DNA from: Magnetococcales bacterium
GTDB lineage: Bacteria > Pseudomonadota > Magnetococcia > Magnetococcales > DC0425bin3
Assembly (NCBI GenBank): GCA_015231175.1
Contig: JADGBZ010000010.1
Span: 15,048 to 79,047, forward strand
Direction of reading: 5' to 3'
DNA: 64,000 bases
A model generated the notes under the pieces. The model was not told where the DNA came from and did not search any database. It saw nothing but the letters and a program-made list of their open reading frames with translations. Every line of letters begins with the position of its first letter. The stretch's first letter is position 1. A program made the position numbers and the translations under genes. Of this stretch, positions 26,020 to 44,259 are shown one piece after another.

Positions 26020-26167
26020 GTCTCCATTCAACACCCTCTCAAGAAGAGCTCGGATATGAAAGCCTTGGTCAGGGCTTCGCCCCGAACCCCACCAGGACGC
26101 TGTCTCAGGCCCTGCCAGGGAGCCAGCCCCCTGGATCCCGATGGGTTGCCGGGCGATGAATAGTTAC
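26020..26167 (+). repeat. Type-A repeat, copy 3
   Basis: GTCTCCATTCAACACCC ... CCCCTGGATCCCGAT ... GAATAGTTAC. Confidence 0.85.
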
Positions 26168-35648: not shown

Positions 35649-35790
35649 GTGAAGATTCGGCGCACTTGCAAGAAAAGCTTTGACATGAAAAACTTTGTCA
35701 AGGCTTCGCTCCGAGCCCCACCAGGACGCTGTCTTAGGCCCTGCCAGGGAGCCAGCCCCCTGGATCCCGATTCGTCACCAGATGACGATG
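35649..35790 (+). repeat. Type-A repeat, copy 5 (degenerate)
   Basis: Same three-hairpin core. A 14-bp direct repeat AGGGTGGTGAAGAT (terminus-like) lies at 35643 and 35835, so the right boundary is uncertain. Confidence 0.8.
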
Positions 35791-41442: not shown

Positions 41443-41934
41443 TCAGCCTCGCAAAACGGCCATGCCCAAGAGCAGGTATAAAACAACGAACAGGATGGGA
41501 ACCCCATTTTCAACGTGTGTCAGCGGCCAGTACAGCCTGGGATTTTTTCCTCCGCCCAAAGCGACCCATTCGGCATCATATGGGGCAACCGGCAACATCT
41601 GCTCCAATGTATGAATCACTTTGAATTTCCCGGTATTCAACTGGCGATATGAATGCACCATGAACCACCAGGTCAGACAGAGCAACATGACGGCAGCGAA
41701 CGGCAGCATGCCTACCCAGGTTGGCTGCAAGAGTTTTTCCTTCAGCAAGACGGCAAATGCCGCAATGAGCGCGGTGTGAACAGCCAGGAAAAACGAGTTG
41801 GCCATCACGCGCCTGGCGCTCACACGATCCGCCATCTCAACACAAAGCTTGTATTGCTCAAAAAGATGCTGCTCATAGGCGCTGCCATAGGTACGCTTTT
41901 TCTGGCGCAAAAGGTTGAGATCGTCGATACTCAT
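41443..41934 (-). CDS. RipA-like small integral membrane protein
   Basis: EQYK..VEMADRVSARR..ANSFF, SYRQLNTGKF.VI..LE..LP...Y.AEW, three hydrophobic segments; family recalled from memory. Confidence 0.65.
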   Translation of the reverse strand: MSIDDLNLLRQKKRTYGSAYEQHLFEQYKLCVEMADRVSARRVMANSFFLAVHTALIAAFAVLLKEKLLQPTWVGMLPFAAVMLLCLTWWFMVHSYRQLNTGKFKVIHTLEQMLPVAPYDAEWVALGGGKNPRLYWPLTHVENGVPILFVVLYLLLGMAVLRG

Positions 41935-42082
41935 CGGCAGCTTTCCCGTGGGCAGTGATCCATAACTCTGCGGAGGCTGTCCGACTCCTGACAGGAAAGC
42001 AAACGTTTGTTGGGATACGGCCATGCAGTGTGTTCCCAGAGATCGAATCGTTGCCGAAGGTGCTGAAATCGCCACAGGTATC

Positions 42083-43261
42083 ATGAAAAAAGATGTCACC
42101 CTGGTGGTCATGCGCTACACCCCCTTCGGTGGCGATGAGACCCAGGCTGCCCTTCTGGCGGAGCACCTGGTGGCTGCGGGTTGCCACGTCACCCTGCTGT
42201 GCGCCGATTGGCGGGGAGGGCCGTTACCATCCGGTATGACCTGGGTGCGCATCCCCATGTGGCGAGGTGGTTCCTGGCTCAAGGTGTGGTCCTTCGCCCG
42301 TGCTGCGGCAAGCCATTTAAAAAAACATCCCGGCATGCGGGCCATCGCCTTCTCCCGGGTGCCGGGAGCGACCTTTTATCGGGCCGGCAGCGCCTGCCAT
42401 GCGGAGTGGTTGCGCCTGCGCCAACAAACAGGCGGCTGGCGGGCTGCCCTCTCCATGGCGATCAACCCCCTGCACAGGGTGATCCGTGGCATCGAAGGGC
42501 ACATCTTTGCCGATACGGTCCGGCAGGCGGGACGCATCATCGTCATGGCTCGTCTGGGGCAGGAACAAATACAACGATTCTATCCTATCCCCGATGACCG
42601 GTTCGTCGTCATTCCACCCATGGTGGATCTCAGCCGTTTCCAAAAAAGTGCGGCTGAGTGGATCGCGGATCGGCACAAGACCCGCTCGGCCCTGGGCGTG
42701 GATGAGAATGAGGCTGTTTTATTGCACGTGGGATCGGGTTTTCGCATCAAACGTTTGGCCCTCACGCTGGCCGTTGTGGCTGAATTGACGCAGCGTGGGC
42801 AGGCGGTGCGCCTGCTGATTGCCGGTTTTGACCGCAAGGAGCAATCCCGGCATGTGCGCCTTGCCCAACAACTTGGCATAGCGGAACAGGTGACCTTTCT
42901 GGGAGGGGTCGCCGATATGGCCCCTTGTTATGCGGCAGCGGATCTGCTGCTGCTTCCCAGCCTGCTGGAGACCTTCGGCGTGGTGGTGGCCGAGGCGCTC
43001 TATTGTGGCCTGCCGGTTGTGATCAGCACTGGCATGGGGGCGCGCGATCTGGTTTTGCCTGCCGCAACGTGTGGCCGGGTGGTTGCAGTGGATGCCGGCC
43101 CGACCGCCTGGGCTGCGGCTGTTGCCGAAACTCTGGACCAGAAACGCCACAGCACCGATCCCGACGCCGATGCCGCCCGGCGCCGCATGGCCGCCCTCCC
43201 CTGCATGCCCGAACGGGTTCTGGCCCAATACCTGGATCTGCTCGCAGAAATCCAGGCGTAA
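42083..43261 (+). CDS. GT4 glycosyltransferase (WaaG-like)
   Basis: YTPFGG, VGSGF..K, ETFGVVVAEA. Confidence 0.88.
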   Translation: MKKDVTLVVMRYTPFGGDETQAALLAEHLVAAGCHVTLLCADWRGGPLPSGMTWVRIPMWRGGSWLKVWSFARAAASHLKKHPGMRAIAFSRVPGATFYRAGSACHAEWLRLRQQTGGWRAALSMAINPLHRVIRGIEGHIFADTVRQAGRIIVMARLGQEQIQRFYPIPDDRFVVIPPMVDLSRFQKSAAEWIADRHKTRSALGVDENEAVLLHVGSGFRIKRLALTLAVVAELTQRGQAVRLLIAGFDRKEQSRHVRLAQQLGIAEQVTFLGGVADMAPCYAAADLLLLPSLLETFGVVVAEALYCGLPVVISTGMGARDLVLPAATCGRVVAVDAGPTAWAAAVAETLDQKRHSTDPDADAARRRMAALPCMPERVLAQYLDLLAEIQA

Positions 43262-43308
43262 CGATTCACCACCAGGCAGCGCATTGGGGGCAAGAAATCG
43301 GGATCCAG
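43258..43308 (-). repeat. Left half of a split repeat copy (IS110 target)
   Basis: GTAACGATTCACCACC terminus, then AATCGGGATCCAG; the reverse complement CTGGATCCCGATT equals 35760-35772. Confidence 0.75.
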
Positions 43309-43509
43309 CAACTGTCTTGACTGTCAAGCAGCTTTTGCTAGGGGGCATGTCCATGTTTTCATGTTTTTTATCATGATGTTGAGAATGGTTAGGAGCTTCC
43401 GCATGCAGGCCGTGAGTGCTACCTTTTTGGGTTTTCCTGCATCGACCAGGCGTTGATAAAAGTGGCGTATGACCGGGTTGAAACGAGTGGCCACCAATGT
43501 GCTCATGTA
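43307..43509 (-). mobile_element. IS110-family element, 3' fragment with intact right end
   Basis: C-terminus YMSTLVATRFNPVIRHFYQRLVDAGKPKKVALTACMRKLLTILN; right end TTGACAGTCAAGACAGTTG-CT. Confidence 0.85.
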
Positions 43510-44195
43510 CTCAACTTTCGCAGTTCGCGAAATGGCTTGGTGGCCTGATTTCCGCCAGATACCCGGGTGAGGCTGGCCCTTTTGTGCTAAAATATTGCTT
43601 GCGAATTCAATATGTCAGCACGAGAAAGGCCGGCCTCATGGATAAGAATACCAGGAATCAGGCAGCATTGCCCACCCCCATGATCGATGACATCAAATCC
43701 TGGTCTTTCGGGACATTCGGGGTAGATGGCGCCGTGTTTGATCTCCTCAAGGAAATGGCCTTTTTGGGCATTTTTTCCCGCCATGGATGGAGCAAGCGCT
43801 CCGGCAAGGATCTGCCCGTCCTGATCGTCCTTCTGATCATACATCCACTGCTGAAGGTGCGTTCCATCCACATTTTCTGTCGCGACCATTTTCTGTCGAT
43901 GTTCAATGTGGGCAAAGATGCTTTTTACCGCTTGTTGCAGCGCGATTTTCCCTGGAGGACGGCCCATTGGGCACTGGTCCAGAGACTCGTTCCCCATTGG
44001 CGGAAACTGGATCTCGGCAACGGCTACCTGGTGGCTGATACCACCATTAAAGGGAAGAGGGGAAACCGGATCGAGGGGGTCTGCTGGCACTACGATCACA
44101 CCACAGGGCGCAAGGTTCCCGGATTCGAGACTGCCCAGTTGATCTGGGTAAATGCCCAGGATGCGTTGGCGTTGGACGCCGCCTTGCGTTTTTCC
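43510..44195 (+). mobile_element. IS701/IS4-like DDE element, 5' fragment (truncated transposase from 43638)
   Basis: Probable terminus CTCAACTTTCGCA; LVADTT...RIEGVCWHYDH...GF...LIW; transposase-like sequence ends at ~44195. Confidence 0.7.
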
Positions 44196-44259
44196 AATTG
44201 TTTTTCATTCTTGCAAGAGTTACAGGCGCTTTCTTGGCTCCTGCTTTTATTTTCTCCAC

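Follow-up and report, generated by a model that had tools for sequence, protein, structure and literature searches.

Several described systems resemble the element studied here. IS621 of E. coli carries the donor ACAGTATCTTGTAT (PMC13396178), and the available text of PMC11208160, PMC11208158 and PMC13626964 describes it as guided to REP by a bridge RNA. Thousands of IS110 guide/target pairs are catalogued in the accessible portion of PMC11208160, and insertion of IS110-family elements into repeats or MITEs has already been published (PMC11208160, PMC5896051, PMC11187229 and PMC12288879, each in its available part). IS1111 of Coxiella is likewise an IS110-family element that uses a resident MITE, QMITE2, as landing site (20/21 copies), but it belongs to the IS1111 group, carries its RNA in the right end and targets a GTAG REP inside the MITE (available part of PMC5896051). 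In Pseudomonas putida, ISPpu9/MITEPpu9 and ISPpu10 are also repeat-targeted IS110 elements with hairpin targets, and the likeness extends to an associated extra small RNA and non-autonomous minis, with a native promoter in the linear element for ISPpu9 (accessible text of PMC12288879 and 10.64898/2026.03.19.712850). ISEc21, also of the IS110 group, is guided to another mobile element and has a relative that was naturally retargeted, but the target of ISEc21 is a coding stretch of IS3-family transposase genes and it lacks core duplication (available part of PMC11187229).

We analysed a 64,000-nt stretch of contig JADGBZ010000010.1 from a Magnetococcales bacterium (the window), which contains the 3' remnant of an IS110 element. 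According to the accessible text of PMC11208160, PMC11208158 and PMC13626964, this element has in common with IS621 a CT core, a long left and a short right end, a predicted two-loop RNA, the guide order, an identical right-donor guide, a predicted junction promoter and a repeat target. Its donor, ACAGTTG-CT-TGTAT, is identical to the IS621 donor at 12/14 positions and different at 2/14. It differs from IS621, as described in those portions, in its target (an internal MITE hairpin vs REP), its right target guide (natural 7 bp vs 4 bp), its left end (412 nt to the ATG vs 191 bp) and an extra RNA-like module, and the two recombinases are distantly related. A literature search found no publication combining Magnetococcales and IS110. 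Very probably, the locus is the dead remains of an IS110-group insertion sequence (IS) that is present in multiple copies. Its assembled ends all lie at the CT of one hairpin, which is the last of a 147-bp MITE and is shared by other repeats, and a bridge RNA likely guides it as in IS621.

The remnant in the window and its target repeat

The features of the locus, and two unoccupied repeat copies in the window, were as follows.

43258..43306, minus strand: right part of the target MITE, with the right target GGATC, a short insertion and a terminal repeat ending GTTAC
43307..43308, minus strand: core dinucleotide CT, present at all 16 right and 5 left junctions
43309..43327, minus strand: right end, with TTGACA at 43327-43322 (-35 of the predicted circle-junction promoter) and the left-donor ACAGTTG at 43315-43309; 16 exact genomic copies
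43324..43509, minus strand: 3' fragment of the IS110 (bridge) recombinase, 61 codons and stop, 5' part gone; 92-96% identical copies on contigs C7, C86 and C143
43510..44196, plus strand: truncated DDE element (IS4-family by best model), starting exactly at 43510 and abutting the IS110 fragment
26026..26159, plus strand: unoccupied MITE copy (internal part), with the empty target core CT at 26131-26132
35655..35788, plus strand: unoccupied MITE copy (internal part), with the empty target core CT at 35760-35761

Read on the minus strand from 43509 to 43258, the locus consists of 61 IS110 codons, the stop (43326-43324), TTGACA, ACAGTTG, CT and the right repeat part ending GTTAC, and the core CT (43308-43307) is followed by GGATCCCGATT. 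The initial annotation had described a transposase stop, ACAGTTG and CT in this order, and the sequence reads so at 43326-43307; the GTAAC terminus that it reported was found at 43258-43262, and the repeat copies align in register with its matches at 35760 (13/13) and 26131 (12/12). The right MITE part overlaps the stop codon of a glycosyltransferase gene (42023-43261, plus strand). A gene at 41443-42111 (minus strand), located between two glycosyltransferase-region genes and on the opposite strand to them, showed a strong match to PF24838 (8xMP; E 2e-42).

The 61-aa recombinase fragment matched IS110 proteins (PF01548+PF02371) with identity up to 83%, and its score against NCBIfam NF033542 (E 2e-7) fell below the cut-off because the sequence is a fragment. 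The neighbour at 43510, previously regarded as IS701-like, is better described as IS4-family (NF049925, E 2e-26 vs about 1e-6 for the IS701 models; all below cut-off). Its start base is identical in 5 genomic copies, and its alignment to the copy on contig C114 stops at 44196, near which the element is cut. The longest copy of this IS4-family element (L026, G000 C114:22582-24469) has a MITE copy directly on either side. The remainder of both the IS110 and the IS4-family element, as well as the left repeat half, is absent from 43258-44196, and the IS110 copy at 43324-43509 is dead because the rest of the element and the left repeat half are missing here. Close to the end of the recombinase gene, a run of C (window 43327-43345; also L024, L025 and L027) differs in length among copies, and in the C7 and C86 copies the recombinase frame stays open across the right end and continues into the MITE.

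The target repeat is a unit of 147-148 bp with about 350 genomic copies and terminal inverted repeats (TIRs) starting with GTAAC, and 41 of its 86 full-length copies are flanked by an exact 8-bp duplication. REP/BIME sequences are short extragenic palindromes without TIRs or target duplication, a description that the repeat does not fit. IS66-type ends have terminal repeats starting with GTAA and 8-bp duplications, and the repeat has both, so we take its ends to be IS66-like. The repeat is a MITE, not a REP, and the earlier comparison to REP does not hold in view of these TIRs and 8-bp duplications. No autonomous IS66-family partner with the MITE ends was recognised by eye among the long TIR pairs of the genome, and left and right MITE halves could not be paired through their 8-bp duplications. 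The initial annotation had predicted CAGCCCC-CT-GGAT as the target; the site was right, but its usual form is CT-GGACC (299 repeat copies), with GGATC as the minor variant (51). A second CT-GGA[C/T]C site in the middle of the MITE gave 182 matches, the four commonest forms having 3-5 left-guide mismatches, and 0/16 right ends were located there.

Within the 3.8-Mb assembly, 16 exact right ends were present, the majority at contig ends, followed by GGACCC (14/16) or GGATCC (2/16). Since GGA[C/T]CC follows only 1,189 of 376,068 CT sites genome-wide (0.32%), its occurrence at 16/16 right flanks is not due to chance. All five left ends begin CT-TGTATCTTGG (with two changes in the C92 copy) and are preceded by the left half of the same hairpin, the left flank ending GCCAGCCCC-CT in four of them and GCCAGCTCC-CT in one degenerate copy. 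Left and right flanks join to an intact repeat, with CT at both ends. Both expectations raised for other copies were borne out, namely that they would occupy the same repeat (one hairpin position for 16/16 right and 5/5 left ends) and that their left flanks would be repeat halves ending in the predicted sequence and CT (4/5). Judged by eye, about 9 right flanks reach the GTTAC terminus, 3 enter a sister repeat and 4 continue with other distal sequence; therefore, the hairpin cassette is recognised rather than the MITE terminus. The sister repeat (43 matches; C33, C44, C54, C55, C143, C158 and others in the same genome, G000) has the same internal hairpin cassette with different ends, and this IS110 uses it as a target too.

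Searches of the genome, of 41 + 56 related genomes and of 120 metagenome matches to the guide pattern (50/64 parts covered) revealed no full-length copy of this exact element. The left end with 71 codons comes from contig C87 and the C-terminal parts come from C7 and C11; because they share the target and show a donor/guide match, we infer that these pieces belong to one element. Two left-end stubs (L028 and L029, at the ends of G000 C2 and C162) repeat CT-TGTAT after 31 nt, which could reflect duplication of the left-end start, insertion of a sequence within the element's own left end or an artefact of the assembly.

The predicted bridge RNA and its guides across relatives

Contig C87 (locus L023) terminates in a complete left end and 71 recombinase codons. 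In the fold of the 125 nt preceding the start codon, two internal loops each enclose a central stem-loop, and the guides stand at the IS621 positions (numbering after the available text of PMC11208158); the folding energy is ordinary (z -0.5 for the 125-nt region and -1.9 for the whole left end). In the donor loop, the left guide ACAGUUGCU matches the donor at 9/9 positions, and the right guide AUUUGCAAG has the bases given for IS621 in the accessible part of PMC11208158, the right donor TGTAT being identical as well. In the target loop, 7/7 positions of the right guide GGUCCAG pair with CTGGACC, one of them as a G-T wobble in the variant CTGGATC, while the left guide UUGCCCUCU pairs with CAGCCCCCT at 8/9 positions (six exact, two wobbles), leaving one real mismatch at position 2. 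The handshake bases C81 and G166 fit donor G7 and target C7, respectively.

The left end measures 412 nt from core to ATG, and the right end 15 nt from stop to core (43307 copy). Joining the C87 left end to the right end creates TTGACA-17-TATCTT, which by sequence resembles a sigma-70 promoter; a promoter scan of the linear left end found no full sigma-70 site. The initial annotation had proposed that the bridge RNA is programmed against the lineage's own repeat and that folding the left end would reveal matching target- and donor-loop guides. The two-loop RNA of C87 agrees with both points, its four guides fitting the predicted target and donor. The guide had also been considered lost at the 43510 junction, which is correct for this locus, but it is visible on C87. 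Sub-threshold matches to the Rfam family sX15 (a Xanthomonadaceae sRNA) lie antisense to bridge RNAs at L023:460-615 and L032:1335-1487 (36 and 33 bits; cut-off 55), and sX15 may correspond to the antisense of an IS110 left end.

The N- and C-terminal recombinase pieces each matched NF033542 below the cut-off, the middle with two of the four DEDD acids being unassembled, and full-length homologues carry both PF01548 (DEDD RuvC-like) and PF02371 (Tnp, catalytic Ser). The core dinucleotide, the long left and short right ends, the two-loop RNA and the junction promoter sequence are all those of the IS110 group, to which the element would belong on every DNA-level test except a complete recombinase. 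Its designation as an IS621-like IS110 element stands: the 61-aa fragment matches IS110 proteins, and the CT core, donor and guides fit the IS621 plan. The relation to the IS621 recombinase is distant (C-terminal piece, E 1.5e-5; N-terminal piece, no match). In a FastTree tree, the element's own fragments grouped near L189, L199 and L032 with weak support (0.47-0.82), and L180, L147 and L138 formed a separate clade.

A donor-loop pattern scan yielded 103 loci in named genomes, to which two more were added; 54 of these 105 loci were parsed into 22 distinct target loops, and 51/105 were unparsed. Among relatives sharing the donor guide (n=16), the left guide scored 7.4 on its own target vs 5.1±1.1 on other targets, and the right guide 6.2 vs 3.9±1.1, with the better of two registers taken for each guide and the right-target string of this element entered by hand as its commonest flank. 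The own target was strictly best in 12/16, and the guide of this element reached 14 on its own target, compared with ≤11 for the 15 others. The guide pattern of this element is typical of the clade, because left-guide positions 1-2 are often unpaired in its relatives and a 7/7 right guide occurs in 11/16. Position 81 is C in 20/22 loops, fitting G at donor position 7.

Relatives at L189, L199, L180, L147 and L138 and in genome G005 (L264 with L034) share the right guide but have different left guides, and they occupy other CT-GGACC hairpins, each matching its own left guide. Within very similar repeats, L189 occupies the middle hairpin and the L023 element the last one, and an apparent two-base register slip may distinguish their left-guide loops. 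At L199, a tandem hairpin repeat holds a related IS110 twice, in adjacent repeat copies. In a genome of the same genus (G001), L007:1187-1530 and L009 are non-autonomous minis of ~340 bp at CT-GGACCC sites; they have a left end with bridge RNA and a right end, without recombinase, and their guides look degenerate.

Proposed targeting mechanism and alternatives

By analogy with IS621, the element would be excised as a circle, bringing together the TTGACA-17-TATCTT promoter, and this junction promoter would drive both the RNA and the recombinase (available text of PMC11208160, PMC11208158 and PMC13626964). The donor loop (ACAGUUGCU / AUUUGCAAG) would read the joined element ends and the target loop (UUGCCCUCU / GGUCCAG) would read CAGCCCC-CT-GGACC, with the G-T wobble admitting the GGATC variant and the natural 7-bp right guide offsetting the weak left guide. 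As the handshake bases C81 and G166 would fit the post-exchange strands, insertion would be favoured, and recombination would take place at CT into an empty MITE. Targeting by bridge RNA is supported because the guides match and change with the target across relatives.

The imperfect left guide would also be compatible with targeting by protein or homology, the guide match being incidental, but this is highly improbable given that matches in the IS621 geometry occur at four separate guide segments, which track the target across relatives. Another proposal, that base-pairing is insufficient and the target hairpin serves as a second, structural determinant, follows ISPpu10, for which the accessible text of 10.64898/2026.03.19.712850 reports a hairpin gate. 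The left target lies in the 3' part of a hairpin in 7/7 folded CT-GGA[C/T]C targets. Moreover, the genome contains 640 guide-matching sites (≤1 mismatch), 361 in the repeat and 279 outside, yet 16/16 ends are in the repeat, which has a chance of about 1e-4 if all sites are equal. However, long ORFs contain 230 of the 279 sites outside the repeat, and if insertions into ORFs are purged by selection, the chance of 16/16 rises to about 0.13, so a hairpin gate is not needed. The core itself is also within the stem here, and the stem would compete with guide pairing. We therefore consider a structural gate unlikely and retain guidance by the bridge RNA as the preferred explanation. The finding as posed is a well-supported further member of the IS110 group with an already known mechanism.

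A passenger module in the left end

From core to donor loop, the C87 left end spans 357 nt, compared with 95-205 nt in 21 other types; it is about twice the normal length because of a module of ~170 nt.

L023:240-429 (= G000:C87:126439-126628): passenger module, ~170 nt, with covariation and a -10-like box
L273:2987-3166; L051:353-553; L275-L324: further module loci

Left-end positions 55-230 match non-coding DNA elsewhere, and for this element the module was seen in one left end, that of C87, the sole fully assembled one. A covariance model built from 13 copies detected one copy in G000 and hits in 21/38 other genomes of the order, 0/112 other genomes of the phylum, 11/151 in the phylum of an Acidobacteriota genome, 2/151 in the phylum of a Syntrophales genome and 3/101 in a Reyranellaceae sample. 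Two-sided changes occurred in 32/42 pairs across 33 copies (shuffled: 21±2, 0/500), in a model-fitted alignment, which is biased toward the model. With plain MAFFT, aligning 19 copies (18 outside training) recovered the 5' domain, with two-sided change in 12/16 pairs, and did not recover the 3' domain. The module had 76 G-U-type vs 38 A-C-type cells, and its internal loop UGAAAC/AGGGAUA was conserved. A -10-like box was present upstream of 17/41 copies vs about 1 expected, 14 of them at one distance (6/47 loci were dropped for want of anchor or flank).

Transposase catalytic domains were located within ≤450 nt at 10/26 loci of the order and 10/19 elsewhere (20/45, a raw count without background rate; 65/98 ORFs were submitted for the 19 loci elsewhere). 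The adjoining transposases were of integrase-core (IS3/IS481-like), IS110, IS66, IS256, IS1380, IS200, IS1 and IS1595 types, and the position and orientation of the module vary among host elements. In Acidisarcina, the module occupies the right end of an annotated IS110, and its location is the same in the L051/L084/L098 clade. Phage and plasmid collections contained one clear match, on an Acidisarcina plasmid, and viral contigs gave 0 matches to two module patterns. For 19 module-bearing loci, Rfam 15 returned nothing over the module save sub-threshold hairpin (miRNA-model) matches at one locus. A description of the module was not found in the literature, including the accessible text of 10.64898/2026.10.21.760802, 10.64898/2026.08.14.744561, PMC11109978 and PMC5737381; the supplements of PMC11109978 and the preprints, or COMPASS clusters, could hold the motif. 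Ssr9 of ISPpu9, in its available description, has end boxes of its own element on both sides and is complementary to its antisense RNA, whereas the module lies inside the left end and occurs in unrelated IS families, a distinction drawn from description, not sequence. An IS1111-type right-end bridge RNA was rejected, since the carrier IS110s have their own left-end bridge RNA and the module also lies beside non-IS110 transposases; a small peptide was rejected by eye, as start codon and frame are not kept.

We give about an even chance to the module being an undescribed structured RNA family with its own promoter, repeatedly captured by unrelated ISs in several phyla and acting in trans as a helper of any host element. 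That it is a separately transcribed, protein-binding small RNA acting in trans is a similarly balanced prediction; such an RNA might, for example, titrate a host RNA-binding or defence protein. In the integrated element, the extended -10-like promoter of the module would read through into the bridge RNA, and 5'-extended bridge RNAs work in vitro (accessible part of PMC13626964). Instead of acting in trans, the module might serve as a portable promoter/leader, or might cleave itself and thereby define the 5' end of the bridge RNA: its position is immediately upstream of the target loop, on the same strand and in place of the 5' hairpin of relatives, and it contains the extended -10-like box. 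In other elements, however, its place is downstream of the transposase, with sense (L273, L276) or antisense (L279) orientation, and from there it could not lead a bridge RNA, and Rfam gave no ribozyme match to it, so we regard this role as rather improbable. A trans-acting small RNA is preferred over a leader or ribozyme, or a DNA-level structure, because the promoter and the invariant loop bases are kept in any position.

For the element, targeting a MITE would open up hundreds of intergenic sites, the MITE itself being a repeat that spreads. Its relatives form a retargeting series, in which the right guide is fixed and the left guide tracks lineage-specific hairpins, and the clade has natural 7-bp right guides, which are useful for bridge-recombinase engineering. 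As an RNA-like element with its own promoter, carried in any orientation at the ends of many unrelated transposons, the module would represent a new kind of non-coding transposon cargo.
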